A DNA stretch of 64,000 nucleotides, taken from the NCBI GenBank assembly GCA_021817245.1, contig JAKAVQ010000004.1, forward strand, positions 115,403-179,402, written 5' to 3'. Positions 9,802 through 62,477 of this stretch are shown here, piece after piece. Position numbers and translations under genes: made by a program. The stretch comes from Thermoplasmata archaeon (lineage in GTDB: Archaea; Thermoplasmatota; Thermoplasmata; Lutacidiplasmatales; UBA184). The notes below the pieces were generated by a model. The model saw only the letters and a program-made list of their open reading frames with translations, made no database searches and was not told the DNA's origin. Position 1 is the first letter of the stretch, and every line of letters starts with the position of its first letter.

Positions 9802-10347
9802 ATGACGGACATCAGTGAAGTAGCCGCCCACGAGGCGGTGGTCTCAGGGTCGGAGAGCGACGACGGTGGTCCGCATGGATTTTCCATGGTGGTCTTCTCG
9901 GGGGACCTCGACCGGCAGATCGCCGCGTTCATCATCGCGAACGGGGCCGCGGCGATGGAGCTGCCGGTGACGATGTTCTTCACGTTCTGGGGGCTGAACG
10001 CGCTCCGGCGCGACGGTCCCGTCCCGATCGCGAACCCGAAGACGACGGTGGAGAAGATGTTCGGCCGCATGATGCCGCGCGGAGCCGAGAAGCTGAAGCT
10101 CTCCCACCTCAACCTCGGCGGGCTCGGCACGCGGATGATCAAGCACGAGATGGAGAAGAAGCACGTCCTCGACCTCCCGCATCTGATCCAGACCGCTCGC
10201 GAACAGGGCGTTCACCTGGTCGCGTGCACGATGACGATGGACCTCATGGGGATCCGGAAGGAGGAGCTGCTCCCGGGGATCGAGTTCGGGGGTGTCGGCA
10301 CGATGGTCTTCGCCTCCGACAACAGCCGTTCGACGCTGTTCATCTAG
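9802..10347 (+). CDS. DsrE/DsrF-like family sulfur-carrier protein (DsrE2/DsrE3-type)
   Basis: FSMVVFSGDLDRQIAAFIIANGAAAMELPVTMFFTFWGL ... GVHLVACTMTMDLMG shows the typical DsrE-family fold pattern with a conserved Cys in the xACxxT segment. GAGGAGG lies upstream of the ATG. Confidence 0.8.
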   Translation: MTDISEVAAHEAVVSGSESDDGGPHGFSMVVFSGDLDRQIAAFIIANGAAAMELPVTMFFTFWGLNALRRDGPVPIANPKTTVEKMFGRMMPRGAEKLKLSHLNLGGLGTRMIKHEMEKKHVLDLPHLIQTAREQGVHLVACTMTMDLMGIRKEELLPGIEFGGVGTMVFASDNSRSTLFI

Positions 10348-10536
10348 TCCGAACCGGTTCGCGGGCCGGTCCCCGCGGGGCTCGATTCCCCCTCCGCCCC
10401 GCGCCCATCGGGCGGGTGACCTACCCCCCCGTTCCCAGCGGGGTGGGACTCCGCACCGGTACGGCCCGTACCGACACGGCCGCGCAGTGCCATCGCACGG
10501 CGGGGAATCGCCGTCAGACGAAATTCACTTTCCCCT

Positions 10537-10542
10537 CTTAAG
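10537..10542 (+). promoter_or_regulatory. TTAAG-type TATA-like box upstream of the tusA-hdr operon
   Basis: CTTAAG lies about 33-37 nt upstream of the ATG at 10575. It follows a 227-nt spacer after the dsrE-like gene. Confidence 0.25.
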
Positions 10543-10574
10543 CGGCGGTCTCCCTCGTTAGCCGTGGGTAGCGC

Positions 10575-10829
10575 ATGGAAGCAGACGAGCTTCGGCACCT
10601 GAAGGTCGACAAGACAGTGGACGCACGGGGCGTGGCCTGCCCGGGGCCGCTCCTCGAGGCGAAACGGGCGGTGGCGAGCGTGCCGCTGCACGGGGTGATG
10701 GAGGTCATCTCCTCGGACGAGGGGACGACCGAAGACGTCCCGCTGTGGGCGAAGAAGGTCGGTCACGAGTACCTCGGAACGGTCCCCGAGGCCGGCATCT
10801 GGCGCGTCTACCTCCGGCGGGGCAAGTAG
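10575..10829 (+). CDS. tusA: sulfurtransferase TusA family protein
   Basis: 84 aa with VDARGVACPGPLLEAKRAV, the canonical TusA Cys-Pro-x-Pro active-site motif. Confidence 0.9.
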   Translation: MEADELRHLKVDKTVDARGVACPGPLLEAKRAVASVPLHGVMEVISSDEGTTEDVPLWAKKVGHEYLGTVPEAGIWRVYLRRGK

Positions 10830-11252
10830 GTGACGCCGAGCGCTCCGGCACCGCGCCGTCCCCGGGTGCTGGTCTTCTCGACGAACGCGATCTCCGACAT
10901 GGGGATCGACCTCGCCGGGAGCTCGCACCTCGACTACGCAGCGTCCGTCGAGGTGATCTCGGTACCCTGCTCCTCCGGGATCCATCCGGAGTGGATACTT
11001 CGGGCGATCCGGGCCGGGTTCGACGGGGTCTTCATCGCCGCGGACGGGCCGGAGTGCTCCTACGTCTCCGATTGCGTCGAACGCACCGGGCGGGTCGTGG
11101 CGGAGGCGCAGGCACTGCTCGAAAAGAGCGGGTACGACGCCGGGCGCCTCAAGATGGCCGCGATCTGCTCGGTCTGCGCGGAGCCTTTCGTCCACCACAT
11201 GCGCCAGTTCGGGGACGCGCTCGCGAGCGCGTCCGCTCCGGCGGTGGGATAG
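10830..11252 (+). CDS. MvhD/FlpD-like hydrogenase iron-sulfur (delta) subunit
   Basis: VLVFSTNAISDMGIDLAG...VISVPCSSGIHPEWILRAIRAGFDGVFIAADGPECSY...ICSVCAEPF matches the methyl-viologen-reducing hydrogenase delta-subunit pattern. The GTG start directly abuts the tusA TAG stop. Confidence 0.8.
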   Translation: MTPSAPAPRRPRVLVFSTNAISDMGIDLAGSSHLDYAASVEVISVPCSSGIHPEWILRAIRAGFDGVFIAADGPECSYVSDCVERTGRVVAEAQALLEKSGYDAGRLKMAAICSVCAEPFVHHMRQFGDALASASAPAVG

Positions 11253-13985
11253 ATGACCGATGTTCCGGCGACCTCGGGCTACGACGTGCTGGTGATCGGC
11301 GCCGGTGTCGGCGGGATGGAGTCCGCGCTCTCCCTCGGCGACATGGGCTTCAAGGTGCTCCTGGTCGAGAAGGAGGCCAGTGTCGGCGGCCGGATGATCC
11401 TCCTGAGCAAGGTCTTCCCGACGCTCGACTGCGCGAGCTGTATCTCGACGCCGAAGATGGCGGCGGTCGGCCACCATCCGAACGTCCGTTCCCTCGTCTA
11501 CTCGGAGGTCGACGAGATCACCGCCCGGCCGGAGGGCGGCTTCTCGGTACGACTCACGCAGAAGCCGACGTTCGTCGATGCCGCGAAGTGCACGGGGTGC
11601 TCCCTCTGCGAGCCGGTCTGTCCGGTACCGGTCCCGGACGAGTTCAACTACGACCTGGCCGGTCGTCGGGCGGCGCACATCGCCTTCCCGCAGGCCGTGC
11701 CCAAGAAAGCCGTCCTTTCTCGCCGGGGCACTTCGCCCTGTTCGTTCACGTGTCCTGCGGGGGTCAAGCCCCACGGGTACATCGCGCTCGTCCGCGCGGG
11801 GAAGTACGACGAGGCGTTCCGCCAGCATCTCGAGGACGCTCCGCTCGTGGGGGTCCTGAGCCGTGCCTGCTACGCCCCGTGCGAAGAGTCGTGCACGCGG
11901 GCGGATCTCGAGGGCACGGTATCGATCCGCGGGATCAAGCGGTTCATGGCCGACCGGTATTACGCCGCCCACCCCGAACCCGAATACGGCCCCCCGAAGG
12001 TCCTGTCGGGAAAGAAGGTCGCGATCGTCGGCTCGGGTCCGAGCGGACTCACCGCCGCCTTCTTCCTCGCAAAGGCGGGACACACCGTGACCATTCTCGA
12101 GTCCGCCGCGGAGCCCGGGGGCATGCTCCGGTGGGGGATCCCCTCCTACCGTCTTCCGAAGAGCGTGCTCGAGCGGGACCTGAAGAATATCACCGCGCTG
12201 GGGGTCCAGCTTCATACCGGGGTCAAGGTCGGTTCGCTCGAGGCCCTCCGCTCCGACGGGTATGACGCGGTGTTCCTGGCGACCGGCACGGTCGGCGGTC
12301 GGACCCTCGGAGTGTCGGGGGACCACCTGAAGGGCGTCTACGACGCGGTCGGGTTCCTGCACGACGTGAACGCCGACGCTCCGCCGGACGTCGCCGGGAA
12401 GAACGTCGCGGTGATCGGCGGGGGGAACGTCGCGATCGACTGCGCCCGCAGCGCGCTCCGCCTCGGGGCGAAGCAGGTCTACCTCGTCTACCGGCGCTCG
12501 CGCGAAGAGATGCCCGCCCATGCCTGGGAGATCCGGGACGCCGAGGAGGAGGGGGTCCACCTTGCGTGCTCGTGGGACGTCGATCAGGTCGTGGGCTACG
12601 ACGGGCGCGTGTGGGCCCTCGAGCTCGTCGGGTCGTCCTCCACGGGCGGCAAGGGTAGGAAGCAGGCCCTCGCGCGCGACGAGAGCCGCCGCGAGACGCT
12701 CCCCGTCGGTGCCGTGATCGCCGCGATCGGTCTCACTCCCGCGACGTCGCCGTTCTCGACCGAGATCGCGCGCGCGGCGAACGGGACCGTAAAGGCGACC
12801 CCCGAGACCCTTCAGACCTCGCTCCCGTACGTGTTCGCGGGCGGGGACGATGTGCTGGGTCCCTCCTCGATCGCCGACTCGATGGGCCAGGGCCGGCGCG
12901 CGGCCTTTTACATCGATCGCTACCTCCGCGGCGTCGAGCTGAGCGGCACCGTCTTCGACGACCCCCTGCCCGAGGTCGACCGCGCTCAGGTGGCCGCCGA
13001 GGCGCGGACGGACGCGCCCGCCCGGCTTCCGGTGCCGGCGCCCCGTCTTGCCGTCGGGGACCGGATCGCCTCGTTCGTCGACTTCGAGGCCGGGCTCACG
13101 GAGGAGGAGGCGCGCGCGAACGCGAACCGCTGCCTCGACTGCGGGATCTGTTCGGAGTGCCGACAGTGCGTCGCGGCCTGCCCCGCGGACGCGATCGACC
13201 TCGGGATGCGGGCGCGGCACGAGACCGTCACGGCGCGCTCGGTCGTCCTTGCGACCGGGTTCTCTCCCTTCGATGCGCGTCAGAAGCCGGCGTACGGCTA
13301 CGGCCGTCTCCCGAACGTGATCACCGGGCCCCAGATGGACCGGATCCTCGCCCCGACCCGGCCGTTCAACGCCGTGGTCCGACCCTCCGACGGAAAGACG
13401 CCGAGCAACGTCGCGTTCGTCCTGTGCACCGGCTCCCGCGACGACCAGGTCGGCAACCGGCTCTGCTCGCGGGTCTGCTGCATGTACTCGATGAAGCAGG
13501 CTCAGCTGCTGATGGGCTCGCTGCCGCTCGCGGACGTCACCATCTACTACATCGACATCCGGGCGTTCGGCAAGGGCTACGAGGAGTTCTACCGGCAGAC
13601 CCAAGGGATGGCCGTCTCGTTCGTGAAGGGGAAGGTCTCCCGCATCGAACCGACCGACGACCAGGACCTCCTGGTCCATTACGAGGACGTCGAGGGCGGG
13701 GGCGGCGAGAAGGTCGCGCGGCACGACCTGGTTGTCCTCGCGGTCGGACTCTTGCCGAACACGGGCGCGCTCAAGCTCTTCCCGGACGGGGCCCCGGCGA
13801 GTGACGTTCACGCCTACATCTCCGAGCCCGACGAGGAGCTCGAACCGGGGAAGACGAGCCTTGCGGGGGTCTTTGTCATCGGGTCGGCGACCGCGGTCCG
13901 CGACATCCCCGACACGATCGTCCACTCGGAGGCCGCCTCGGCCCAGGTCGCCGCGTTCCTGAAGCGGCCGGGAGCGAAGGCATGA
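11253..13985 (+). CDS. HdrA-like flavoprotein with inserted GltD/NfnB/SudA-like NAD(P)H-binding module (HdrL-like fusion)
   Basis: The 910-aa protein has these segments in order: an N-terminal FAD site YDVLVIGAGVGGMESALSLG; a ferredoxin motif CTGCSLCEPVCP; a GltD-type segment CSFTCPAGV...YAPCEESCTR, KKVAIVGSGPSGLTAAFFLAKAGHTVTILE and GKNVAVIGGGNVAIDCA; a second ferredoxin motif CLDCGICSECRQCVAACP; and the HdrA signature VLCTGSRDDQVGNRLCSRVCCMYS. Confidence 0.85.
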   Translation: MTDVPATSGYDVLVIGAGVGGMESALSLGDMGFKVLLVEKEASVGGRMILLSKVFPTLDCASCISTPKMAAVGHHPNVRSLVYSEVDEITARPEGGFSVRLTQKPTFVDAAKCTGCSLCEPVCPVPVPDEFNYDLAGRRAAHIAFPQAVPKKAVLSRRGTSPCSFTCPAGVKPHGYIALVRAGKYDEAFRQHLEDAPLVGVLSRACYAPCEESCTRADLEGTVSIRGIKRFMADRYYAAHPEPEYGPPKVLSGKKVAIVGSGPSGLTAAFFLAKAGHTVTILESAAEPGGMLRWGIPSYRLPKSVLERDLKNITALGVQLHTGVKVGSLEALRSDGYDAVFLATGTVGGRTLGVSGDHLKGVYDAVGFLHDVNADAPPDVAGKNVAVIGGGNVAIDCARSALRLGAKQVYLVYRRSREEMPAHAWEIRDAEEEGVHLACSWDVDQVVGYDGRVWALELVGSSSTGGKGRKQALARDESRRETLPVGAVIAAIGLTPATSPFSTEIARAANGTVKATPETLQTSLPYVFAGGDDVLGPSSIADSMGQGRRAAFYIDRYLRGVELSGTVFDDPLPEVDRAQVAAEARTDAPARLPVPAPRLAVGDRIASFVDFEAGLTEEEARANANRCLDCGICSECRQCVAACPADAIDLGMRARHETVTARSVVLATGFSPFDARQKPAYGYGRLPNVITGPQMDRILAPTRPFNAVVRPSDGKTPSNVAFVLCTGSRDDQVGNRLCSRVCCMYSMKQAQLLMGSLPLADVTIYYIDIRAFGKGYEEFYRQTQGMAVSFVKGKVSRIEPTDDQDLLVHYEDVEGGGGEKVARHDLVVLAVGLLPNTGALKLFPDGAPASDVHAYISEPDEELEPGKTSLAGVFVIGSATAVRDIPDTIVHSEAASAQVAAFLKRPGAKA

Positions 13986-15715
13986 CCGACGAGAAGTCCC
14001 GCCGAATCGGCGTCGTCGTCTGCCAGTGCGGCGGCAACATCTCCGACTACGTCGATACGGAGAAGGTCCGGGAAGCGGCGAGCCACGAACCGGGCGTCGT
14101 CTCGACCCAGGTCCAGATGTTCGCCTGCTCGGACGCCGCCCAGCAGGACGCGATCCGCGAGATCCGGGAAAAGAAGCTCGACGGGATCGTCGTCTGTTCC
14201 TGCTCGCCGAAGCTCCACCTCGCCACCTTCCGTGCGATGGCCGAACGGGCCGGGCTCAACCCCTACGAGTACACCCAGGTCAACATCCGCGAGCAGTGTT
14301 CCTGGGCGCATACCCACGACCCCGCGGGAGCGACCGCGAAGGCCACCGGTCTCGTGATGGCCGGTATCGCCCGGACGGCGCGGTCCCAGCCGCTCGAGCC
14401 GATCCGTGTCGAGACCCTACCCCAGGCGCTGGTCCTCGGGGCCGGGGTCGCCGGACTGCGGAGCGCCCTTGCCCTGTCGGACCTCGGAATCTCCGTCCAC
14501 CTGGTCGAGAGTTCCGACCACGCGGGCGGCCAGGTGATGCGCTGGGGCGACCTCTTCCCGCACGACAAGGTCGGTGCGGAGCTTGTGGCCTCGCTCGTCG
14601 CCGAGGTCGGTCGCCGAGAGAACATCCAGCTCTACCTCGGGACCGAGCTCGTGGAGAAAAGCGGCCGGGTGGGCGCGTTCTCGGTGCGCCTCCGGACGTT
14701 CACCGGCGATCAGATCCCCCTCAAGGTGGGGGCGATCGTCGTCGCGACCGGCTTCGAGCCGTACACTCCCAAGCCGGACGAATTCGGTTACGGCCTTCCC
14801 GGCGTGATCACCCTCCCCGAGCTCAAGGAGGCGCTCGCCCGCCGACCGAAACCGCTCGTCTACGGGGGCCGGGAGATCCGATCGATCGCGTACATCTACT
14901 GCGTCGGCTCGCGACAGTCCGCCGACGACGGAACCGGGCATGCGTACTGCTCCCGCTACTGCTGCAGCGCGACCAGCCACATCTCCACCGTCGTGAACGG
15001 CCTCGACGCGTCCGTCAAGCAGTACCACCTCTTCCGGGACGTCCGAACGTACGGGAAGTACGAAGCGCTCTACGAGAGCGCGCTTCGCGGCGGCTCGCTC
15101 TTCCTCCGGTACGGCGAGGAGGCGCCGCCGGTCGTCCGCTCGCAGGACGGCGCGCTGGTCGTCCAGGTCAAGGACCGGCTGCTCGGCGGAGAGGAGGTCG
15201 AGCTCCGGCCCGACCTCGTCGTCCTCGTGACCGGCATGGTCCCCCGGGACAACGCGGCCCTGACGCGGGTCCTAAAGATCCCGGTAGGACAGGACGGGTT
15301 CTTCCGCGAAGTGCACGTCAAGCTGCGCCCGGTCGAGACCGTCGTCGACGGCGTCTTCATCGTCGGGACCGCCCAGGGACCGAAGAACGTCGCGGAGAGC
15401 GTTCAGAGCGCCCTCGCGGCCGTCTCGAAGGCCGGGGCCCTCCTCCTGAAGGGGTACGTCGACCTCGACCCGCAGGTCGCGAAGGTCGACCCGAACCTCT
15501 GCGTGTGGTGCGACGAGTGCACGAAGGCCTGTCCGTACGGCGCCATCGACCGCGTCGCGTACGGCGACAAGGAGGTCGCCGAGGTGAACCCCATCCTGTG
15601 CAAGGGGGAGGGAGCCTGCGTCCCGGTCTGCCCGAAGCAGGCCGTCAGCGTCCTCGGGTACACGCACGAGCAGGTCACGTCGATGATCGATGCGCTGGCG
15701 AAGGAGGCCGTATGA
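13982..15715 (+). CDS. hdrA: heterodisulfide reductase subunit A-like flavoprotein (full-length HdrA type)
   Basis: Canonical HdrA N-terminal domain RIGVVVCQCGGNISDYVD...VVCSCSPKLHLATF...NIREQCSWAH, FAD site LVLGAGVAGLRSAL, signature CVGSRQS...YCSRYCCSATS, and two C-terminal ferredoxin motifs (CVWCDECTKACP, CKGEGACVPVCP). ATGA overlap with the upstream gene. Confidence 0.9.
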   Translation: MTDEKSRRIGVVVCQCGGNISDYVDTEKVREAASHEPGVVSTQVQMFACSDAAQQDAIREIREKKLDGIVVCSCSPKLHLATFRAMAERAGLNPYEYTQVNIREQCSWAHTHDPAGATAKATGLVMAGIARTARSQPLEPIRVETLPQALVLGAGVAGLRSALALSDLGISVHLVESSDHAGGQVMRWGDLFPHDKVGAELVASLVAEVGRRENIQLYLGTELVEKSGRVGAFSVRLRTFTGDQIPLKVGAIVVATGFEPYTPKPDEFGYGLPGVITLPELKEALARRPKPLVYGGREIRSIAYIYCVGSRQSADDGTGHAYCSRYCCSATSHISTVVNGLDASVKQYHLFRDVRTYGKYEALYESALRGGSLFLRYGEEAPPVVRSQDGALVVQVKDRLLGGEEVELRPDLVVLVTGMVPRDNAALTRVLKIPVGQDGFFREVHVKLRPVETVVDGVFIVGTAQGPKNVAESVQSALAAVSKAGALLLKGYVDLDPQVAKVDPNLCVWCDECTKACPYGAIDRVAYGDKEVAEVNPILCKGEGACVPVCPKQAVSVLGYTHEQVTSMIDALAKEAV

Positions 15716-15963
15716 AGGGGAAGAAGAACCTGCGGAACCTCCGCGAGGTGCTGGCCGACGAGATGGTCGAGCACGACCGCATCCGCGGTCAGCTCCGGGG
15801 GGGTGCGAAGACGATCCCCGAGCTCGCCGCCGCGCTCGACGCGCCGACCGACGAGGTCGTGAAGTGGGTCATGGGCATGCGACGCTACGGCCTCGTCCGC
15901 GACCTCCCGAAGCCGCGCGCCGATGACTACCACCGCTACGAGCTCGTGGAGGCCCGCTCATGA
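15712..15963 (+). CDS. small hypothetical protein (winged-helix-like?) embedded between hdrA and hdrC
   Basis: 83 aa: MKGKKNLRNLREVLADEMVEHDRIRGQLRGGAKTIPELAAALDAPTDEVVKWVMGMRRYGLVRDL... AAGGAGG lies 5 nt upstream. It has ATGA overlaps with both neighbours. It is the only plausible part of track ORF 14026..15963. Confidence 0.6.
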   Translation: MKGKKNLRNLREVLADEMVEHDRIRGQLRGGAKTIPELAAALDAPTDEVVKWVMGMRRYGLVRDLPKPRADDYHRYELVEARS

Positions 15964-16268
15964 AGACCGACCCGACGTTTGTGGACACGCTGCGGCTCGG
16001 CGGCGAGTTCGACGCTCGAATGTGCATGAACTGCGGCGTGTGCACCGCCCTCTGCCCCCTCGGCCTCGAGATCCTCCCGCGGAAGCTCTTCCGGCGGGTG
16101 CTCCTCGGTGACCACACCGCGGTGGAGGGCCAGGAAACGACGATCTTCTCCTGCTTGCTCTGCCGACTGTGCGAGCAGAACTGTCCGGGCGGGGTGCACA
16201 TCGCGGAGAACGTGCGCACGCTGCGCACGTACCTGAACCGGGAGGTTCACGGGCTCGCGGAAGCCTGA
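15960..16268 (+). CDS. hdrC: HdrC-like 4Fe-4S dicluster protein
   Basis: 102 aa with two cluster motifs, CMNCGVCTALCP and CLLCRLCEQNCP, spaced as in heterodisulfide reductase subunit C. Confidence 0.85.
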   Translation: MKTDPTFVDTLRLGGEFDARMCMNCGVCTALCPLGLEILPRKLFRRVLLGDHTAVEGQETTIFSCLLCRLCEQNCPGGVHIAENVRTLRTYLNREVHGLAEA

Positions 16269-16281
16269 GGAGGGACGGATC

Positions 16282-17250
16282 ATGCCGGTACCGATCTCGG
16301 CGACGCTCGGAATGCTGGGCGACAACCTGCGCAAGCGCCGGAGCGCGCTCCCTCTCGGGCGTCGCGTCTCCACCGCGTGGGCCCGTGGGCTCGATCTGCC
16401 GCACGGTGGCTCCACGGTCCTCTACACCGGCCAGATGTGGCAGATGGTCCCCGCCATCAACGCGATGAGCCGACAGCTCTCGAAGTACGAGAACTCGCGG
16501 CTGACCGGCCTCTTCGGTTTCGCGAGGACGCTGAACCGGCTCGTCAACCTGACCCCCTTGCTCGCCCGCACGAAGGCGAGCGAACGAAGGGCGTACAACG
16601 AGCGACTGCGGAACATCGTGCGCCTGCTCCGCGCCGCAGGCGTCGAGTTCGGGTACCTCTATGCGGACGACGTGTACGCGGGCGGGCTGGCCCACGACGA
16701 GGGGCTCGACCGCGCCCTCGAGGAGCACGCGCGCTGGGTCTGGGAGGTGTTCCGGCGGAACGGCGTCCGACGTGTGATCACCGTCGACCCGCACACGACC
16801 AACATGCTGCGCAGCGTCTTCCCGAAGCTGGTCCCGGGCTTCTCGCTGGAGGTGCGGAGCTATCTGGAGGTCCTCGCCGAGAAGCGGCTCACCGCGCGTG
16901 CCCCCCTCGAGCGTACCGCGACCATCCACGACTCCTGCGTCTACGCACGGTACGAGAACGTCGTGGAGCCGCCGCGGACCCTCCTCGCCGGCGCCGGAGT
17001 CCGGCTCGCCGAACCGGAGCTGTCGGGAAAGATGACGTTCTGCTGCGGGGGTCCGATCGAGATGCTCTTCCCCGGAAAGTCCTCGGAGGTCGCGACCAAG
17101 CGGATCAACCAGCTCAAGGCCGTCGATTCGCGGGTCGTCACAGCCTGTCCGCTCTGCTATGCCAACCTCTCGCGGGCGGCACCCTCCGACGTCGAGATCC
17201 ACGACATCTCCGACTACCTGGTCGAGGCATACTGTCCGGTCGAAGCCTGA
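16282..17250 (+). CDS. HdrB-like CCG-domain protein with only one intact CCG motif
   Basis: The C-terminal half carries DSCVY...TFCCGGPIE...ACPLCY (CCG domain). The N-terminal half (VLYTGQMWQMVPAINAM) has no cysteines where the first CCG domain of HdrB normally sits. GGAGGG lies upstream of the ATG. Confidence 0.8.
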   Translation: MPVPISATLGMLGDNLRKRRSALPLGRRVSTAWARGLDLPHGGSTVLYTGQMWQMVPAINAMSRQLSKYENSRLTGLFGFARTLNRLVNLTPLLARTKASERRAYNERLRNIVRLLRAAGVEFGYLYADDVYAGGLAHDEGLDRALEEHARWVWEVFRRNGVRRVITVDPHTTNMLRSVFPKLVPGFSLEVRSYLEVLAEKRLTARAPLERTATIHDSCVYARYENVVEPPRTLLAGAGVRLAEPELSGKMTFCCGGPIEMLFPGKSSEVATKRINQLKAVDSRVVTACPLCYANLSRAAPSDVEIHDISDYLVEAYCPVEA

Positions 17251-17857: not shown

Positions 17858-19378
17858 TCACGACCGGCGCCTGCGGTACCAGAGATAGGCCACGCCGCCG
17901 ACGAGGGCGACCGCGACGACCAGCGCGAGCTCCAGGACCGGCCACGGATAATCCCAGGACGAGGCGATGCTTCCGGGAACGGTCGGTGCGGCCCCGCTGG
18001 CAAGCCCCGCCGCCGCGAGGGCGGCGGCGGTCGGGCTCATGGGTTCCGCCGACACCTCCACGGGCGGTACGCCCGTCGCCGAGTAGGTGGGGGCGAGCGC
18101 CCCCGGACCCGAATGCGATCCCATCCCGTCCCCCATCGACACGGCCGAGTCGTTGGTGCGGTAGGCGGCGACGGCGGCACGAGGCTCGAGCGCGCCGAGC
18201 CCTCCCGAGACATCGATCGCGAGCTGCGGGCTCGCGAGATAGGAGAACGCCATTTGGCAGCCGTCCCACTCGCCCGTCCCGTAGTCGAAGAAGTTGGCGG
18301 GCGCTGGGAGGAAGATCAGACCGTCCAACGCGTCGAGCGCGCGCGCGAAGTTCAGGGAGATCAACGGGAGCCGGGTGCCGTTCGGCAGGGTCATCGCGCC
18401 GATCACTGATTCCTCCAGCGAAATATTGCCGGTCGGAGCGAGCGTACCGGACGGAGTACCCCCGAGAGAGATCGTGGCTCCGCTCGCGTTCACCTTCTCG
18501 TACGACCACGAGAGGGACCAGCCGCCGCTTCCGGAGTACGAGCTGTTCGAGCCGTGGGGCTGAGGCCCGAGCGCCCCGCCCGTGCCGCCATTGACCGGTA
18601 CGAGTCCGAGGGGGGGTGTGAAGGTGAGGTCGGCCGACGACTGCCCGGTGGCGCGGAATGTCTCCGTGACGATCCGGACGCCGTTCGGGGTCGTGACCCG
18701 GATGTCCGCGCTCGAGCGCGCCCATGCGTCGGCGGTCGCCGAGGAGTCCCGCGCGGCGAACGCCGGCACGGACCCCCCGTTCGCGTAGACCGACCCGTTG
18801 TTCGTGATGTTGAGGTGGCCCACCGCATGATCGTACGTAGCGTGGTGGAGAACGACCTCGAGGGCCGGCGCGCGACAGTCCGGGGAGCAGTACTGAGTCG
18901 TGAAGTTCGATAGGACGGTGCGGTCGATCGAGAGGCGACTGAGGTTCCCGGAGACGTTCTGTCGATCGTACACGGTGTACCAGCCCAGGTACGCCGAGAT
19001 CGTATGGACCCCCATCGGGGTGGCCGTGCTGACGTTGAACCACCGGTCGGTCCCGTACGCCCAAGCGTCCGGGTTCGCGGGAGAGACCGCGGCGCCGGCC
19101 GCAGACGGAGCGCCCGCCAAGGACAGCGCTCCGAGTACCGTCGCCGCCAAGATCAGTCCGACGAGCCCCACGGCGCGGACCGGGCGCGAAGCTTTCCCCC
19201 ACATGGTGCACCGAACCGCGCCGACGCCGTGGAGAGGCAAAGGGCTCACGTCAAGGTCACCTGACGGACGGGCGACGATCCAGTACCGGCGCCGCTGGGG
19301 GGGGAAGGTGGTCTCCCAGAGGACGCGGGTCCTCTCGACGCCTCCATTGGCCTCTCGCCGGGCGGACGGCTCCGTCAC
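17858..19378 (-). CDS. secreted, C-terminally membrane-anchored surface protein (hypothetical, sequon-rich)
   Basis: 506 aa with an internal signal-like segment VGLVGLILAATVLGALSLAGAPSAAGA, many N-x-S/T sequons, and a C-terminal TM helix plus basic tail (LALVVAVALVGGVAYLWYRRRRS). The start overlaps the upstream gene stop by 4 nt. Confidence 0.65.
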   Translation of the reverse strand: MTEPSARREANGGVERTRVLWETTFPPQRRRYWIVARPSGDLDVSPLPLHGVGAVRCTMWGKASRPVRAVGLVGLILAATVLGALSLAGAPSAAGAAVSPANPDAWAYGTDRWFNVSTATPMGVHTISAYLGWYTVYDRQNVSGNLSRLSIDRTVLSNFTTQYCSPDCRAPALEVVLHHATYDHAVGHLNITNNGSVYANGGSVPAFAARDSSATADAWARSSADIRVTTPNGVRIVTETFRATGQSSADLTFTPPLGLVPVNGGTGGALGPQPHGSNSSYSGSGGWSLSWSYEKVNASGATISLGGTPSGTLAPTGNISLEESVIGAMTLPNGTRLPLISLNFARALDALDGLIFLPAPANFFDYGTGEWDGCQMAFSYLASPQLAIDVSGGLGALEPRAAVAAYRTNDSAVSMGDGMGSHSGPGALAPTYSATGVPPVEVSAEPMSPTAAALAAAGLASGAAPTVPGSIASSWDYPWPVLELALVVAVALVGGVAYLWYRRRRS

Positions 19379-22300
19379 TCTCGTCCGCTCGGCCCGGGGG
19401 GCCCCTCGGTCGGCTCCGTCGGCGTCGCCTCCGGCCGCTTCGGCCGGCCCCGCATCACCACTGCCGTCACCACAACCGCGCCCGCAACGAGCGCCCCCAC
19501 CACCGCGATGTCCGTGGTGGACAGAACCCCGGACGACCCGGACGACGCGGCCGTTGCGGAGAACGTGAGCAGTACGTGGACCGGCGTGCCGGCCACCGTG
19601 AAGGACCCGGTCGATGGAGAGACCAGATAGCCGGGCGCGACCACCCGGAACTCGAACGATCCGTTCGCCAAGGCCAGGTCAAGTCCGTCCGGCCCGGCCA
19701 AGTGGTCCGACCCGGCGAGGGTCAGCACCCAGCTCCCTCCGGCGCCGAGCCCCCGCACCTCGAAGGTGACCGGGTAGGTGTACGGTTGGAACTCGACCGC
19801 TTGCGTGAGCGCCGAGCCGTTCACGATCACCGTGCCCGAGGGCTCCGCGACCGCGAACCCGATCGGCACGCCGATGGAGTACGCGTACGAACCGTTAGGG
19901 AGCGACAGAGAGAGCGCGCCGGATCCGACCCGGTACTCCGCGCCCTCCACGGCCAACACCCACGGAAGACCCGCCGGCAACCCCGTGGACTGCCACGTGA
20001 CGGCGTAAAGGACGCGCTCGAACGCGAGCGTGAGGCCGAGGGATGTGCCCTCGATCGTGACCCTGCCGGACGCCGGAACTGACTCGAACCCCGCCGGCGA
20101 GCCGACGGCGTAGCCGTAGGTCCCGTTCGCCACCGAGATCGCAAGCGTCGGTTCCGTGGACCGGTACGTAGTACCGCCCAACGTGAACCCCCACTCGACG
20201 CCCGCCGGAAGGCCGACCGTGAGGACCGATAGTCCGTAGGTCCGGAGCGCAAACTGGACCGGGACCGATACGTTCTGTCCGACCACCTCGATCGTGCCCA
20301 TGGACGGAGTCGCGGCGTAGTCCGACGCGGCGATCGAGAACGCGTAGCTCCCGTTGGCCGCCGTGAACCCCACCGAGGACGTCGAGGTCGTGACGGCCGT
20401 GCCCGCGAACGTGACGTTCCAGGGGGTGCCGACCGGAAGCCCGGTCGACTCGAAAACGACCGAGTAGTTGGTCGGGGCGGCGACGAACTGGAGGGTCACC
20501 GCGAGGTTCTGGTGGTGCATCACGCCGTGCCCGGACCCGTCATGCGACCGGTACCCGGCGGGAGCGAGCGCCTGGTAGGAGAACGGAGTGAACGCACCGT
20601 TCAGCTCCGGGATCGCGAGCGTGCTCGAGGAGGTACGGAACGCCGTGCCGTTGAAGAGAACTCCCCAGATAGCTCCGGCCGGGAGCCCGACGGCGGAGAA
20701 CGTGACCGCCGAGTAGTTCCAGGGGGCCGCGAGAGGGTACTGGTCGAATATCGTTCCTCCCACGGTGTAGGGCTGGTCGACGATCCCGTCGCTGCCCGGC
20801 ACACTCTGGGCGCTGCCGTTGCTGAGATCAGGGCCGGTCCAGCTACTCCAGTAATTTCCTCCGACCGGGTACCCATCGTCCCAAACCGAGCCTGAAGCGG
20901 CGGCAGAGCCCGAGAGGTCCACAGGCCCGTTGTCCACGAAGTTGTTGTGGTAGACCCGGACCACCCCGGCCGGCGCGAAGTCGATCGGGTTCGCGTTCTG
21001 GTAGAGGTCGTTCGACGCGTAGACGACGCCCGAGCTTCCGTCCTCGACGACACCGACACCGTTCGCGGTCGCGTTGTTGTCGGCGACCACGCCCGCGACG
21101 CCGGCCGATACCTCGAGACCCACCGGCATCGAGCGGATGCTGTTCGCCTCGACCGTGAAGTTGACGGGTCCGCTCAGGGAGATTCCGACGTGACTCTCGC
21201 CGGAAACCACGTTCGACGAGACGGTGACCCCCGTCCCTCCGTCCAGGTGGATCCCTTCGGCGCCGCCGCCCAGGACCTGGTTGCCCGAGACGACGATCGA
21301 ACTCGCTCCCAGCGAGTAAAGGGCGGTGCCGGGCCAGTTCGAAAACGTGTTGCGTGCGATCGTTACGCCGATGCAGTTGGTGAGTTCGATCGCGCGGGGG
21401 GCGGTGGGGGACCCGGTGAGGACCGAGGCCGAGACCTGAAGTTCACGGTCGTTGGAGATCACGAGCCCGGCCGTGATGGGGGAGGCGAAAGTGCTTCCAA
21501 CGACCCAAAGCCGGTTCGAGTAGGAGTCGACGAGCCCGATGTAGTCTTGGCTGGCGGTGTTCTGGGTGAAGTCCAAGCGGCCGTTGGTGGAAAAGCGGTA
21601 ACCCGAGGCGCCCGTCGCCGTCAGGTTGTTCGCCGTGTTGCCGCTCATCTGGACGTTGTGCGATGACGTCATCCCGATCCCCGTCACGGCCGCGCTCGAG
21701 ACGTCGTTGTTGGTGACGGTCCCGTGGACCCCATAGGCGATCGTGATCCCGGCCCCGGCGGAAAAGCGCACGTCGTTACCGGTCAGTGTGAAATCGAGCA
21801 CCTGGTCGATCGAGATCCCCGTGGTGCCGGGCGGACCCCCGGGACCCGTCCTTGCGTGCGAGAGGTCGTTCGATCGCACCGTGACGTACTCGCCGCCCGA
21901 TGCCGCCACGCCGACCACCGTGCGTTCGGCAAGGTTCGAGGCGAGGAGGACGTTGGTCGAGTTGGAAACCGCGAACCCGGTGGCGGTGTCGTTGGCGCGG
22001 TTGCCGACCACGCTGACGCTCGCCCCGCCCTGGAGGATCAGGCCGGCCGCGCTCGCTCCGGCCTCAGCGGAGAGGTCGTTGCCCGTGACGTTCGCCCACG
22101 TGACCTGGGAGAGCCGCAGTCCTGCTTGGGCGGCACCGGAGAGGTCGCTCGCCGCCACGTTCAGGTCGGTGGCGGCCGTGGCCGCGAGCCCGACCGTGGA
22201 GCCGGCGAGGCGCGAGCTCGTGATCTCCACGCCCTGCGACGCTCGGATCTCGAGCCCGACCTGGACCGAGCTCACGGTCACGCCCTGGACCCGGATGGAG

Positions 22301-23121
22301 GTCGAGTTGTCGATCTGCACTCCGAGGCTTGCGTCGGAAAGACTACCGCCGACGATCGAGCTGTTGTGGGAGGTGTGGATCGTGACGGCCGTGGCCCCAC
22401 CGAGCACGGTCATCTCGGCGAGGGTGACGTCAGACGCGGCATCGACCTCGACGGCCGCCGGAACGGATGGAGAAGCGATCACGGAGTACCCATCTCCGGC
22501 GAGCACGCTGCCGTTCCGTTGATCGACGATCGCTCCGTGAAAGTCCGCAGTAAGAGTGTAGACACCGTTCGAAATCGAGACGGGCGCGCTCGGGTCGCTC
22601 AACGTGCCATCGGGGTAGATCACGAGGGTCACGGTGGGGGAAGCACCCCCCGCCGCTCCCCAAGGGCCGGGGGGCCCCGGATTCGCGACGATCGAAGAGG
22701 GCGCGGACGTCAGAGCGGGACTTGCGCGGGCGGCGGCCCCGGGTCCGCTCACCATCGGGAAGAAGCCGCTCAGCAACAGCGCACCCACGACCACAACGAG
22801 GGCGACCGACACGGGGATCGCGGATCGCGCGGGCGCACGGGTGCTCGGACCGCCGCGCGCGACCGCTGGGGCCGGCCGGTGCTCTGGCTCGGGAGACGCG
22901 GGAGAGCTCGGCCGTCGAAAAGATGCTGGCTCGCCCCCGGGTTCTGTGGACAGACCGCGATCGAACATCGAGGCTCCAGAAGGGGCCGAGCGCAATTCCC
23001 GGAGAAAAGCAATCGGTGAAACAGGCTCGACGGGCGGCCGCCCGCGCCCCCGACCGGCCGCCGGTTTTGTCGGGGAGACCGAGGTCCGTCGAGTCCGTTT
23101 CACCCGACGCCCGCCCGCCAA
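19375..23121 (-). CDS. large surface protein with right-handed parallel beta-helix (PbH1/NosD-like) repeats and C-terminal TM anchor
   Basis: 1248 aa. There is a long run of about 22-residue repeats of the type xxNxIxGNxxxxxxxGIxLxxSxxxxV (beta-helix), then repeated Ig-like modules of about 90 aa (YxVTFxxxGLPxGxxWxV pattern), then the TM anchor VVGALVAGAVVVTAVVM. The N-terminal limit is uncertain; an alternative start is MFDRG about 52 codons in. Confidence 0.75.
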   Translation of the reverse strand: MAGGRRVKRTRRTSVSPTKPAAGRGRGRPPVEPVSPIAFLRELRSAPSGASMFDRGLSTEPGGEPASFRRPSSPASPEPEHRPAPAVARGGPSTRAPARSAIPVSVALVVVVGALLLSGFFPMVSGPGAAARASPALTSAPSSIVANPGPPGPWGAAGGASPTVTLVIYPDGTLSDPSAPVSISNGVYTLTADFHGAIVDQRNGSVLAGDGYSVIASPSVPAAVEVDAASDVTLAEMTVLGGATAVTIHTSHNSSIVGGSLSDASLGVQIDNSTSIRVQGVTVSSVQVGLEIRASQGVEITSSRLAGSTVGLAATAATDLNVAASDLSGAAQAGLRLSQVTWANVTGNDLSAEAGASAAGLILQGGASVSVVGNRANDTATGFAVSNSTNVLLASNLAERTVVGVAASGGEYVTVRSNDLSHARTGPGGPPGTTGISIDQVLDFTLTGNDVRFSAGAGITIAYGVHGTVTNNDVSSAAVTGIGMTSSHNVQMSGNTANNLTATGASGYRFSTNGRLDFTQNTASQDYIGLVDSYSNRLWVVGSTFASPITAGLVISNDRELQVSASVLTGSPTAPRAIELTNCIGVTIARNTFSNWPGTALYSLGASSIVVSGNQVLGGGAEGIHLDGGTGVTVSSNVVSGESHVGISLSGPVNFTVEANSIRSMPVGLEVSAGVAGVVADNNATANGVGVVEDGSSGVVYASNDLYQNANPIDFAPAGVVRVYHNNFVDNGPVDLSGSAAASGSVWDDGYPVGGNYWSSWTGPDLSNGSAQSVPGSDGIVDQPYTVGGTIFDQYPLAAPWNYSAVTFSAVGLPAGAIWGVLFNGTAFRTSSSTLAIPELNGAFTPFSYQALAPAGYRSHDGSGHGVMHHQNLAVTLQFVAAPTNYSVVFESTGLPVGTPWNVTFAGTAVTTSTSSVGFTAANGSYAFSIAASDYAATPSMGTIEVVGQNVSVPVQFALRTYGLSVLTVGLPAGVEWGFTLGGTTYRSTEPTLAISVANGTYGYAVGSPAGFESVPASGRVTIEGTSLGLTLAFERVLYAVTWQSTGLPAGLPWVLAVEGAEYRVGSGALSLSLPNGSYAYSIGVPIGFAVAEPSGTVIVNGSALTQAVEFQPYTYPVTFEVRGLGAGGSWVLTLAGSDHLAGPDGLDLALANGSFEFRVVAPGYLVSPSTGSFTVAGTPVHVLLTFSATAASSGSSGVLSTTDIAVVGALVAGAVVVTAVVMRGRPKRPEATPTEPTEGPPGPSGRE

Positions 23122-23183
23122 AGCGTCCGAATCAACCGGGCTTCACGTTCGCCCTATCTGCGCGGACCGCCCATTGGCCGAGC

Positions 23184-26100
23184 ATGCAAGCGGGCGCCTC
23201 GACGCCTCAGCGATGGGCAAAGCGACGTTGGACACGGTTGATCCTCCCGGTCACGATCGCCGTCCTGATGGCGGTCCCCGCCGGCTGGCTCGCGATGGGC
23301 GCAAGCCCGCAACCGCTCGCGGTGGCGACCGGCGCGGACGTGGACCCCTCGTCGACGCTGGACGCGGCGATCGCATCTTTGGGCAACGGTGACGGACCGG
23401 CGGGCGGGTCGCCACTCCAATGCGCCACGACTTCCCCGACCCAAGCCTCCTGCGACTCGGTCACCAGTGCGACCCTCGTGACCAATCCGCCGGGCGGTGG
23501 CGGCGGAGAGAACGAGACCACCTCTTACAACGGAACCTGGCTCACCACCCAGCTGAGCCGCTGGGGCGGCGGCGTGGCCTACGACCCCAACATCGGCGCG
23601 ATCGTCGTGGCCGGCGGCTCCTTCATGGGAGCGGCCGAGGTCTCCTACCTCGGCGACACTTGGTATTTCCAGGACGGGAACTGGACCCACACCTACATCA
23701 CGTCGAGCATGAGCGTGCGCGGCGGGATCTCGATGACGTACGACGCACGGGACCACTACACGCTGATGTTCGGCGGGATTCGCGGCGGTCACGTACTGAC
23801 GGAGAACTGGGTCTTCCAGTTCGGCACTTGGACCCTCCTCAAGCCGGCGATCGTGCCCGCGGCCCGGATCGGCGCGTCCCTGGCGTTCGACTCCGCCGAC
23901 AACACGGTCGTCCTCTTCGGGGGGTATGCCCCGTCCTCCGGCAGCACGGCCGGCGGCACCTACTTCGCGGACACCTGGTACTATTCGGGCGGCACCTGGA
24001 CCCCGGTCACCACGACCTACGCTCCCACACCCCGCGCGAACGCCTCGATGGAGTACGACCCGAACCTGGGCGCGTTGGTCCTCTTCGGCGGAAGCAGCCC
24101 GTCCGGCCCGCTCGCCGACACCTGGACCTTCTCACACGGTCAGTGGACCGACCTGAGCGCGACCCTGAGCGGCGCTGCGCCCCCGGCCCGTGGCGCGTCC
24201 GCGATGGCCTGGGACGATGCGGACCACGAGATGGTCATGATGGGAGGCTCGGGCGCCTCGGGCCCGCTCGGAGACGCTTGGGCGCTCATCGGCGCTCACT
24301 GGTCTCCGCTGCCGGCCGGACCGTCCCCGCGCTTCGGCGCGATGATGGCGTACGACACGCAGCTCCAGGCGCTCGTCCTCTTCGGAGGCGGTGCCGGCAC
24401 GACCGCGCTCGGTGACACCTGGTACTTCCAGGGCGGATCCTGGTCTCAGGACACCCAGGGGATGTCGATCAGCGGACGGACGGGCGCGAGCCTGGTCGTT
24501 CTGCCCTCGACGGGCAGCGCGCTGCTCTTCGGCGGCTGGTCGGGCTCGGGCTACTTGGGCGACAGCTGGATGTTCCGGTGGGGCAGCTGGACGTTGATGG
24601 CCGCCGCCGGCACCGGCCCGGCGCCGCGGACGAACGCGGGGCTCGCCTACGTGCAGACGGGACCGAACGCGACCGACGGCTACGCGGTCCTCTACGGTGG
24701 CTTCGACGGTGCCTACCTCAACGACACCTGGTCCTACGCGAACGGGGTCTGGACTCCGCTCGCGACGAACGGAACGCCGGGCGCTCGGTCGGGGATGGTC
24801 TTTGCCTCGAGCGGAACGACGAGCACCGCCCTGCTCTACGGAGGAATGGGGCCGGCGGGCCTCCTCGCCGACACGTGGGAGTTCAACGGCGCGACACTGA
24901 ATTGGACCGCAGTCTCGAACACCGGAACGACCCCGGTCGCCCGCGCGTTCGCTGCGTCCACCTACGACCCCACCTCGAACTCCGTCCTGATCTTCGGAGG
25001 CGAGGGGAAGTCCGGCTACCTCGGCGACACCTGGGAGGTTACCCTGCCCGACGCGGCCGGTGTGTCCACCTGGACGCAGTATTCCGGGGCCGCTCCGTCG
25101 GCACGGTCGAACTCGAGCTTCGCCTGGGTCCCGATGTACCCGTACAATGGCGGAGTGCTCGTCGGCGGAACCAACCTGACCAGCGTGGCCTTGGACGACT
25201 ACTGGGGCTTCAGCGCCGGCGTCTGGACCCAATACCCGACGCCTCCCGCTGGGGGAGGCGGGGGCTCGAGCGGCGGAGAAGAGAACACGACCGAGGTCGA
25301 GGCGACCTCGCCGATGCCGCGGTCGGGCGGTGCCATGTTCTTCACGCCGGACGACAGCTACCTGACCTACTTCGGCGGGCAGACGTCGGCCGGGGTCCAG
25401 AGCGACAGCTGGTCGCTGGTCCTGTTCCTCGTCCAGCCGTCGGGCAGCTCGGTCCGCGCGGACTCGGGCGCCACGATCCAGTACCACGGGGCGCTGTTCG
25501 GCGGAACGAAGCCGTTCACCTACCTGTGGACGTTCGGCGACGGGAGCACGAGCACTTCCGCGACCCCCACGCACGCCTACGCGATCGGGACGAACCTGAC
25601 CAGCCAGGTGTTCGTGAACACCGTGGTCGTCTCCGATGCCAGCGGGATCACCGACACCCGCACGTTCGACACCGTGGTCTACCCGAGCCTCCAGGTCAAC
25701 TGGACAATCGGCAACACGGCCGCGGACGTCGGCGTGCCGCTTTCGTTCTCGAGCACGATCAGCGGCGGTGCTCCGCCGGTGAAGGTGTTCTGGGACTTCG
25801 GCACCGGTGACCGCTACTACGGCTGCAACGGGAGCTACACCTTCCTCGTCCCGGGCAACCACACCGTGACCTTCCACGCCTTCAGTGGCGGCGGAACGAG
25901 CTACCAGAACACCACGCTGGTCTCGGCCGTGCCGACCCCGACCGCCCAGATCCGGGTGTCGCACCTCGTGACCGACGTCGGGGTCCCGGTGGACTTCTCC
26001 GCGGACGTCCGCAACGGCGTGGGACCGCACCACTACCAGTGGAGCTTCGGCGACGGTGCGAGCTCGGCCGACGCGGCCGCGTCGCACGCGTACTCGACCC

Positions 26101-33810: not shown

Positions 33811-33903
33811 ACGCGATCTCCCGACGACGCCGGACCGGCGGAAGGGGCCGAGCAAAGCCTTATCCTGCCCCCCCCTATTGGACGATTGTCCAGCCGGTGG
33901 CTT

Positions 33904-34740: not shown

Positions 34741-34752
34741 GGAATCCGAATT

Positions 34753-39468: not shown

Positions 39469-39488
39469 GACGGTTCGAGGTATCCACC

Positions 39489-39938: not shown

Positions 39939-39960
39939 GCGGGACGCAGGGAGGGAAGCG

Positions 39961-40353: not shown

Positions 40354-40375
40354 GGCCGGCACGAGGTCGCGCGGG

Positions 40376-58974: not shown

Positions 58975-58991
58975 CGAGGGGTCCGCGCCGC

Positions 58992-59390: not shown

Positions 59391-59394
59391 CGCC

Positions 59395-60081: not shown

Positions 60082-60092
60082 GGTGGCACCCC

Positions 60093-61241: not shown

Positions 61242-61261
61242 AGTTTCCTCCGTTCCGTTCG

Positions 61262-61974: not shown

Positions 61975-61998
61975 GCGCGGCCCCCCCTTCCCCCCGCT

Positions 61999-62454: not shown

Positions 62455-62477
62455 GGTTCCTCCGGTTCCCCCTTTCC

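Follow-up and report, generated by a model that had tools for sequence, protein, structure and literature searches.

The window analyzed here, a 64,000-nucleotide (nt) stretch with a G+C content of ~70%, is part of a 194.8-kb metagenomic contig (ENA ERZ27237313 k141_559356), and the nearest homologues of its proteins are found in metagenome-assembled genomes (MAGs) named "Thermoplasmata archaeon". Between positions 9802 and 17250 it carries eight plus-strand open reading frames that join sulfur-carrier genes of the TusA and DsrE families to genes for proteins related to heterodisulfide reductase (Hdr), one of which is a fusion of HdrA with a GltD-type NAD(P)H module. An earlier note had described these reading frames from the sequence alone. 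Their coordinates were all confirmed, and an independent gene caller applied to the ENA contig made identical calls for the eight genes. Their G+C content at third codon positions is 0.89–0.91, compared with 0.80–0.96 for the other window genes passing the same composition filter.

Gene products were assigned by Pfam and NCBIfam profile searches. The first gene (9802–10347) encodes a DsrE2-like sulfur-carrier protein of 181 amino acids (aa; Pfam DrsE_2 PF13686, E 4e-53) and is followed by a 227-nt spacer (10348–10574) with a locally AT-richer stretch ahead of tusA. The tusA gene (10575–10829; 84 aa; Pfam TusA, E 1e-19) is followed by a gene for an MvhD/FlpD-like iron-sulfur protein (10830–11252; 140 aa; Pfam FlpD, E 3e-25) and by the gene for the HdrL-type HdrA/GltD fusion (11253–13985; 910 aa), in which HdrA parts surround matches to Fer4_20 and Pyr_redox_2. 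Then come a partner hdrA (13982–15715; 577 aa; HdrA, 442 bits), a gene for an 83-aa winged-helix protein without any Pfam or NCBIfam family at E ≤ 0.01, here called x83 (15712–15963), a gene for an HdrC-like 2x[4Fe-4S] protein (15960–16268; 102 aa; Pfam Fer4_17 and Fer4_8), and a gene for an HdrB-like protein (16282–17250; 322 aa) with a single Pfam CCG match at aa 214–296. The tusA/mvhD and mvhD/hdrA(GltD) junctions are stop/start abutments and the three following junctions, through the start of hdrC, are 4-nt overlaps, which suggests co-translation. The tight packing claimed from tusA onward therefore holds for the first five junctions but not for the last, where hdrC and hdrB are separated by a 13-nt gap. 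No σ70-like promoter was found in a bacterial-type scan, as expected for an archaeal host, for whose sequence such a scan is uninformative.

Relatives of the fusion protein were sought by comparing an alignment of this protein with one genome per species in GTDB r232. At least 80 full-length relatives with 54–72% identity were obtained from Thermoplasmata, Dehalococcoidia, Acidobacteriota, Gemmatimonadota, deltaproteobacterial MAGs, Ignavibacteria, Zixibacteria, Caldisericota, Armatimonadota, Kiritimatiellales, Aminicenantes, Planctomycetales, and Alphaproteobacteria, and the module as a whole is spread over Thermoplasmata and more than ten bacterial phyla. Cultured hosts are Desulfofundulus thermobenzoicus DSM 14055, D. 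thermosubterraneus DSM 16057, and a Desulfallas sp. In addition, more than 120 protein clusters of equal length match the 910-aa protein at 62–94% identity. A count of 529 genomes, based on short peptide patterns from the HdrA part, may include HdrAs without the fusion and was not relied on.

The synteny of the module was determined by tblastn of the eight window proteins against 80 species-representative loci, with each gene counted only where the contig extends far enough. The order tusA-mvhD-hdrA(GltD)-hdrA-x83, all on one strand, was recovered in nearly all 80 loci: tusA lies immediately upstream of mvhD in 77 of 77 loci, mvhD is present in 76 of 77, the partner hdrA directly follows the fusion gene in 70 of 71, and x83 is present in 70 of 71. 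A DsrE-superfamily gene accompanies 69 of the 80 loci, located either upstream of tusA or downstream of hdrB. The adjacency of tusA and dsrE to the hdr genes is thus conserved in relatives, and chance falls far short of explaining an arrangement whose order recurs in 80 species-level genomes. Some Thermoplasmata also possess paralogous mini-clusters (L013 15724–19203; L022 6857–7810) in which only x83 and a TusA-like gene accompany a second HdrA-GltD fusion gene, whose product is 68–69% identical to the 910-aa protein of the window. No partner hdrA or hdrCB was seen in the L022 mini-cluster; the contig of L013 ends too early to show them.

Both candidate sulfur carriers retain their characteristic cysteines. 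TusA scores above the Pfam gathering threshold and contains an 'ACPGP' motif (CPGP, of the CPxP type) with the active-site residue Cys22, which is conserved in 97% of 76 homologues. By fold and CPxP cysteine it is a TusA-family protein and is predicted to bind sulfur. The DsrE2-like protein reaches 180 bits with Pfam DrsE_2 and 82 bits with NCBIfam DsrE2 (NF047629), below the equivalog cutoff of 210; its single cysteine, Cys142, is conserved in 99% of 70 homologues.

The stretch upstream of tusA is ~400–470 nt long in relatives in which it contains a gene for an ArsR-family regulator. This gene lies directly upstream of tusA in 35 of the 80 loci, both archaeal and bacterial (e.g., L057 6679–7047). 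Its products keep one cysteine near the C-terminal helix in 92% of the members and a second cysteine in about half of them, and among their PDB matches are the sulfide/persulfide sensors BigR and SqrR. In the window and in some close relatives, the spacer is short and the ArsR gene is missing, and tblastn of the dsrE-tusA spacer (10348–10574) revealed no remnant of it.

The 910-aa protein matches PRK12771 with 491 bits and the HdrA2 model with 426 bits. It comprises the thioredoxin-reductase-like FAD domain of HdrA and an inserted ferredoxin domain that is itself split by a GltD/NfnB/StnC-like module of ~460 residues (~aa 157–620) with motifs for two [4Fe-4S] clusters, FAD, and NAD(P)H; this insert is preceded by 'FPQAVPKK' and followed by the second cluster motif of the inserted ferredoxin domain. 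In the PDB, residues 628–903 match HdrA, and residues 160–639 are matched best by NfnB/StnC-like chains, which are NADPH modules. The protein begins at the FAD fold, without the N-terminal cluster domain of HdrA, and stops after the thioredoxin-reductase-like domain, without the C-terminal ferredoxin domain. It retains the sequence FPTLDCASC with Cys60 and Cys63, the latter corresponding to Cys197 of HdrA in the methanogen structure 5ODC, and both are invariant in 81 homologues.

In the same 81 homologues, all cluster cysteines as well as the motifs for FAD and NAD(P)H vary little or not at all. Within the insert, G260xG262xxG265, E283, G389–G391, N392, D396, and G531–D532 are invariant except for G390 (80 of 81), and A394 is kept in 78 of 81. 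The GltD-type insert is thus complete, as had been proposed, and a loss of its binding residues is ruled out. At the predicted 2′-phosphate site (aa 413–415), 56 homologues, including the window protein and those of most bacteria, carry YRR and 25, including those of most Thermoplasmata, Dehalococcoidia, and Kiritimatiellales, carry CLE, which is suggestive of subfamilies of NADPH and NADH type. The name HdrL was given to HdrA/glutamate-synthase fusions of Desulfobacterium autotrophicum in 2009 (HdrL1–3, PMC2702500), and an NfnB-like insert interrupts the inserted ferredoxin domain of HdrA9–11 of ANME-1, a group of anaerobic methanotrophic (ANME) archaea (PMC9012536). Therefore, the fusion itself is not new.

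The 577-aa HdrA had been taken for a canonical full-length protein, a description that did not hold. It possesses the N-terminal cluster domain and the FAD domain as well as the C-terminal ferredoxin domain, and aligns to residues 4–234 and 317–638 of 5ODC_A. Because this alignment skips residues 235–316, the protein lacks the inserted ferredoxin domain. The Cys194/Cys197 pair is missing as well, 'FPTNDCSIC' of 5ODC being replaced by 'FPHDKVGAE'. Conserved cysteines are found at positions 14, 16, 49, and 74, at 307, 323, 327, and 328, and between 507 and 550. In the second cluster motif of the C-terminal ferredoxin domain (aa 540–550, nt ~15599–15631), CKGEGACVPVCP stands in place of CKGCGTCPAGCP in 5ODC HdrA, and one cysteine ligand is thereby exchanged for glutamate.

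Neither protein is a four-domain, homodimerizing HdrA with the N-terminal domain and Cys197 in one chain; these features are split between the two paralogues. From this domain complementarity, the 910-aa and 577-aa HdrAs look like the halves of a heterodimer. The pattern is the same as that from which heterodimeric HdrA pairs, with Cys197 and the N-terminal domain on opposite copies, were inferred in ANME archaea (Chadwick et al., PMC9012536). Altogether, the module contains cofactor motifs for three flavins (the two HdrA FADs and the GltD FAD) and for NAD(P)H, in addition to numerous iron-sulfur clusters.

The remaining iron-sulfur proteins deviate from their canonical counterparts. The MvhD-like protein belongs to the FlpD family, as had been noted, but its canonical N-terminal cysteines are absent: the CCxxC of 5ODC chain D reads S-T-N-A-I in the window and is missing in all 78 homologues. 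Cysteines 47, 76, 82, 113, and 116, on the other hand, are conserved in at least 99% of them, and by this pattern the protein is assigned to a divergent subfamily. The HdrC-like protein corresponds to the ferredoxin half of canonical HdrC, matching the NCBIfam HdrC models at positions 27–98 of 192, and its eight cysteines are invariant in 48 homologues.

The last gene indeed encodes an HdrB-type CCG protein, but one with a single CCG motif (C219, C254, C255, C289, and C292) instead of the two, with their two non-cubane clusters, that define HdrB. This cysteine pattern is conserved in 49 homologues, and the N-terminal half is cysteine-free in all of them. A sequence search of the PDB returned EtfD as the sole match and did not reach HdrB, so that kinship with HdrB is visible at the fold level only. 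The AlphaFold2 (AF2) model of the protein (pLDDT 79.9) has as its nearest fold neighbors in the PDB Mycobacterium smegmatis EtfD (9ojn; E 1.5e-11, TMq 0.66) and LutA, after which HdrB (5odc_B) follows with E 1e-5 and TMq 0.48. EtfD is a quinone-linked electron-transfer protein. A weak match to NCBIfam DsrK/TmcB was also obtained.

The terminal part of the module is variable. It consists of hdrC and the hdrB-like gene in 44 of 66 loci, and in 20 of the 66, from Acidobacteriota, Gemmatimonadales, and deltaproteobacterial MAGs, both HdrC and the HdrB-like protein are replaced by a QmoC-like protein of 374–407 aa, in which a 2x[4Fe-4S] domain precedes several hydrophobic, likely transmembrane, histidine-containing segments. 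By its sequence this protein is QmoC/HdrE-like, with putative heme binding.

With a single-CCG subunit at the end of the operon and, in many loci, a possibly thiol-sensing regulator at its head, the module could be a non-bifurcating NAD(P)H:persulfide/polysulfide reductase switched on through ArsR, which would reduce the persulfide of TusA/DsrE2 at the HdrB-like subunit and thereby detoxify reactive sulfane sulfur or supply sulfide, as an anaerobe-type counterpart of known NAD(P)H persulfide/polysulfide reductases. A single-CCG catalytic subunit such as DsrK can act on protein-bound sulfur, and the weak DsrK/TmcB match of the HdrB-like protein, the intact NAD(P)H module, and the regulator with its conserved cysteine and its relatedness to BigR and SqrR would all fit such an enzyme. 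So would the physiological diversity of the hosts, which range from sulfate reducers to soil Acidobacteriota, Gemmatimonadota, Alphaproteobacteria, and a Chthonomonas MAG and would be in line with a housekeeping role. However, a heterodimeric HdrA core with two FADs plus an MvhD-like protein goes far beyond the needs of a two-electron reductase, the HdrB-like subunit gives way to the QmoC-like protein in the 20 loci while TusA is kept, and the window itself lacks the ArsR gene. We therefore consider a plain reductase unlikely.

The x83 protein is cysteine-free, and its AF2 model (pLDDT 86.9) shows a long helix followed by a winged helix-turn-helix. A Foldseek search of the PDB returned only generic winged helix-turn-helix matches of the ArsR/MarR/Zalpha kind (best E 2e-3), and Pfam searches at E up to 10 gave likewise weak and generic hits; an assignment to DsrD or another known family was therefore dropped. 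An exhaustive profile search of 1.84 billion protein representatives yielded 330 relatives, and wherever their genomic context is visible, they are located inside the TusA-Hdr module. In some cases x83 is part of a fusion, either with a TusA-like domain whose active-site cysteine is replaced by serine (P0315; L022 6857–7810) or with the C-terminal ferredoxin domain of HdrA (P0324, P0353). These fusions, together with the translationally coupled position between hdrA and hdrC, indicate that x83 is probably a subunit of the complex and favor a predicted location near TusA and the C-terminal domain of HdrA; alternatively, it may act as an autoregulator.

The generic winged-helix fold of x83 and the cysteine-less TusA-like domain fused to it in the paralogous clusters could also be taken to mean that these proteins are accessory. 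The module would then be an HdrL-type complex that bifurcates electrons between NAD(P)H, ferredoxin, and a disulfide, its substrate being a low-molecular-weight or DsrC-like disulfide, or quinone, and TusA, DsrE2, and x83 would serve as structural subunits, as maturation factors for the non-cubane cluster, or as regulators. That EtfD, with its quinone link, is the best structural relative of the HdrB-like protein would agree with this, as would the published HdrL/HdrA/MvhD/HdrBC sets of D. autotrophicum and ANME-1, for which no TusA link is stated (PMC2702500, PMC9012536). On the other side, the cysteines of the main TusA and DsrE2 families are conserved to 97% and 99%, and the association of tusA (77 of 77) and the DsrE-family gene (69 of 80) with the module is far tighter than would be expected for accessory genes. 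Moreover, since the GltD module occupies the inserted ferredoxin domain, there is neither a free ferredoxin gene nor a docking domain for it. In our view, a complex of this kind is unlikely.

Domain content and cofactor motifs, the complementary loss of domains, a synteny that is nearly universal, the fusions, and the exchange of the terminal module lead us to infer that tusA through hdrB specify a single soluble iron-sulfur flavoenzyme of the HdrA type, composed of several subunits, with the TusA/DsrE2 relay as its dedicated partner. Its core would be the heterodimer of the two incomplete HdrA paralogues, to which the 910-aa protein would contribute both the Cys197 equivalent that completes the N-domain cluster and the sole inserted ferredoxin domain, interrupted by the GltD/NfnB-type module. 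Three ports can be tentatively assigned. The first would be the NAD(P)H/NAD(P)+ site of the GltD-like insert, on the branch that feeds ferredoxin in methanogen Hdr (N-domain cluster to inserted ferredoxin domain). The second would lead from the HA3-type clusters through HdrC to the single-CCG HdrB-like protein, or to the QmoC-like membrane subunit in other lineages, where it would imply quinone. The third would comprise the HdrA C-terminal ferredoxin domain and the MvhD-like protein, probably with x83 and TusA adjacent, as the fusions suggest. In the presumed net reaction, sulfane sulfur bound to proteins, i.e., a persulfide, a polysulfide, or a TusA-DsrE2 di- or trisulfide, would be reduced or interconverted with linkage to NAD(P)H; the direction of electron flow and the sulfur substrate are putative. 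Taken together, the best reading appears to be that sulfane sulfur on TusA/DsrE2 undergoes NAD(P)H-linked redox chemistry, perhaps with coupling to the third couple by bifurcation or confurcation, and we regard it as evenly poised between right and wrong. It agrees with the function proposed in the earlier note, which likewise was deduced from gene content.

Several points weigh against this assignment. It is not obvious that the persulfide/sulfide couple would serve well as the high-potential acceptor in bifurcation. Of the six canonical MvhD cysteines, four have been lost from the MvhD-like protein, and its cofactor is therefore uncertain. The HdrB-like protein, the sole subunit with a fold known for thiol/disulfide chemistry, has a single CCG motif in place of two, is closest among solved structures to EtfD and not to HdrB, and is absent from 20 of 66 loci, in which TusA persists. 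It is therefore not certain that HdrB would be the place where TusA-bound sulfur or a lipoyl disulfide is reduced, and the sulfur chemistry may occur elsewhere. Since the HdrB-like protein is dispensable in a third of the lineages and TusA is not, the universal subunits (MvhD-like, x83, and HdrA), and not the CCG cluster, may harbor the sulfur site. In addition, the fold of x83 is of a DNA-binding type and NCBI labels some members MarR regulators, the cysteine-to-serine exchange in the TusA-like domain fused to x83 makes a purely structural role of the TusA fold possible, and our literature searches found no expression, interaction, or activity data for any member of the module.

The same ports could also be used in the oxidative direction. 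Electrons from TusA-bound sulfane sulfur would then enter at MvhD/x83/TusA and bifurcate at the HdrA flavin, one branch leading to a high-potential acceptor (quinone through the QmoC-like subunit, or the HdrCB-like proteins) and the other via the GltD insert to NAD(P)+, so that NAD(P)H would be formed without reverse electron transport. By analogy with methanogen Hdr, the geometry would be suitable, with MvhD as input and HA3-HdrC as high-potential branch, the low-potential branch being the inserted ferredoxin domain, which in this case is hard-wired to NAD(P). This direction would also suit the universality of TusA, the MvhD-like protein, and x83 next to a variable terminal module, the x83 fusions that connect TusA with the HdrA C-terminal domain, and the presence of a full sulfur-oxidizing Hdr (sHdr) system in the host. 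However, no catalytic site for oxidizing thiols or persulfides is known from MvhD-type proteins, many of the hosts live as anaerobic sulfate reducers or heterotrophs and not as sulfur oxidizers, and each step of this route is a conjecture, so that we judge it quite improbable. The same holds for its generalization to a TusA-dependent class of bifurcating enzymes, very unlikely in our estimation, in which the ferredoxin branch would be hard-wired to NAD(P)+, the hydrogenase port of MvhD would be taken by TusA and x83, and the electrons of sulfane sulfur would be split between NAD(P)+ and a high-potential acceptor, either quinone via the QmoC-like subunit or the single-CCG HdrB module. Such a class would make NAD(P)H directly from sulfur compounds, again without reverse electron transport; run in reverse, it would use NAD(P)H and quinol or a thiol to reduce low-potential TusA-bound sulfur, e.g., a thiosulfonate.

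NAD(P)H-linked chemistry on carrier-bound sulfur, our preferred function for the module, would take place next to other sulfur-relay systems encoded in the window. A canonical type-I sHdr operon is located on the plus strand at ~33886–41500, where hdrC1-B1-A-hyp-C2-B2 are followed by lbpA, dsrE, and lplA. It carries its own lbpA, and the module is an addition to it, as had been concluded before. The sHdr operon is preceded by a gene for an AsnC-type regulator, and the region is identical in the NCBI MAG GCA_027316005.1. A third sulfur-relay cluster on the minus strand (57961–62714) comprises genes for an lplA-like ligase, a second GCV_H/LbpA-like protein, an HMP-family protein, and a Pyr_redox_2 flavoprotein as well as tusA (61262–61540), a DrsE_2 gene, dsrE, and another tusA (62478–62714). 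The organism thus has dedicated TusA and DsrE proteins apart from those of the Hdr module. Just downstream of the module, positions 17858–26972 encode very large predicted surface proteins with NosD/β-helix repeats and Kelch/PKD domains, and a YHS-domain P-type ATPase is encoded at 30387–32507. The plus strand between 41592 and 58061 is occupied by an alpha-glucan metabolism cluster with genes for a GlgE-like maltosyltransferase, a TreS-Mak fusion, GH77, a branching enzyme, and GH57, together with further alpha-amylase-family genes.

Flavin-based electron bifurcation is best known from Hdr-type flavoenzymes, and TusA/DsrE form the general cytoplasmic sulfur relay. A conserved cross-domain module combining both and equipped with its own NAD(P)H port would newly link the pyridine-nucleotide pool to protein-bound sulfane sulfur and, in some lineages, to the quinone pool. 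In MAG studies its genes are probably labeled 'HdrABC/MvhD' or 'FAD-dependent oxidoreductase' and may be read as evidence of methanogen-like energy conservation. Since the module is present in cultured Desulfofundulus species, it is directly testable, and a natural heterodimeric HdrA would offer a system in which the effect of symmetry breaking on the direction of electron flow can be studied.

The building blocks and the logic of a heterodimeric HdrA have been published. The arrangement as a whole had been called undescribed: full-text literature searches found no description or test of a TusA-headed set, although subscription literature may hold a prior mention, but HdrA/GltD fusions are on record (PMC2702500, PMC9012536). 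What appears to be undescribed is the conserved set of seven to eight genes that combines TusA with a dedicated winged-helix subunit, a divergent MvhD, and a single-CCG HdrB, together with its variant carrying a QmoC-like protein and its wide occurrence in archaea and bacteria.

By its architecture, compared with the text of the published descriptions, the 910-aa protein is an HdrL-type fusion. Like HdrL and HdrA9–11 of ANME-1, it combines HdrA with a glutamate-synthase-small-subunit/NfnB-like NAD(P)H module, and the position of the insert is the same as in HdrA9–11. As in HdrL-type loci, where mvhD is co-located, a FlpD-family gene abuts the fusion gene of the window, and locus VIII of D. autotrophicum resembles it further in that hdrL and hdrA are arranged in tandem with hdrB/C-like genes (PMC2702500). 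In contrast to the window, no TusA, DsrE, or 83-aa winged-helix partner is reported in the descriptions of these loci (PMC2702500, PMC9012536), and some HdrL proteins are selenoproteins, while one has a predicted fumarate reductase domain.

The module lacks defining features of methanogen HdrABC-MvhADG, sHdr, NfnAB/SudAB, and Qmo, with each of which it nevertheless shares components. With methanogen MvhADG-HdrABC (5ODC) it has in common an HdrA FAD domain with an HA3-type cluster, ferredoxin domains of the N- and C-terminal types (both in the 577-aa protein) and of the inserted type (in the 910-aa protein), and MvhD-, HdrC-, and HdrB-like partners. However, the methanogen enzyme is built on an HdrA homodimer, whereas the window encodes two incomplete HdrAs that would form a heterodimer. 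In the window module, the ferredoxin branch is occupied by the NAD(P)H module, HdrB has one CCG motif instead of two, HdrC is of half length, and MvhD lacks the canonical N-terminal cysteines. No MvhA or MvhG hydrogenase gene is present among the called genes within 10 kb on either side of the module.

The sHdr system, encoded in the same genome, is likewise an Hdr-type complex genetically linked to TusA and DsrE-family carriers. It consists of HdrC1B1AHypC2B2 and LbpA, with TusA/DsrE3 as feeders, and thus contains one small HdrA, two HdrBC pairs, and Hyp, but no NAD(P)H module. The module described here has two HdrA paralogues with one HdrC and one HdrB-like protein, lacks lbpA, and is also found in sulfate reducers. 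From NfnAB/SudAB it differs in that the GltD-like module is embedded in HdrA, and the locus holds no gene for a PyrK-like small subunit with FAD and [2Fe-2S].

Qmo complexes of sulfate reducers, of the QmoABC and QmoAB-HdrCB types, resemble the module in having two different HdrA paralogues, an MvhD-type element, and either QmoC or HdrCB as terminal module. QmoA and QmoB are not known to carry a GltD/NfnB insert, and their genes are linked to aprBA, whereas the flanks of the window module and of the few related loci annotated there contain no apr genes. Qmo also lacks TusA, and the terminal proteins of the window are soluble HdrC- and HdrB-like proteins. The exchange of QmoC for HdrCB is already known for Qmo (PMC10504309). 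The NADH-dependent, DsrC-linked FlxABCD-HdrABC of Desulfovibrio is also a pyridine-nucleotide-linked Hdr that contains an MvhD-like connector and for which a protein-bound sulfur/disulfide carrier has been proposed as the substrate. There, the NADH module is formed by the separate proteins FlxABC of another family, HdrA and HdrB are canonical, and the partner is DsrC instead of TusA. By analogy, the module would be closest in logic to Flx-Hdr or Qmo: a pyridine-nucleotide- or quinone-linked Hdr core that would serve a protein-bound sulfur carrier.

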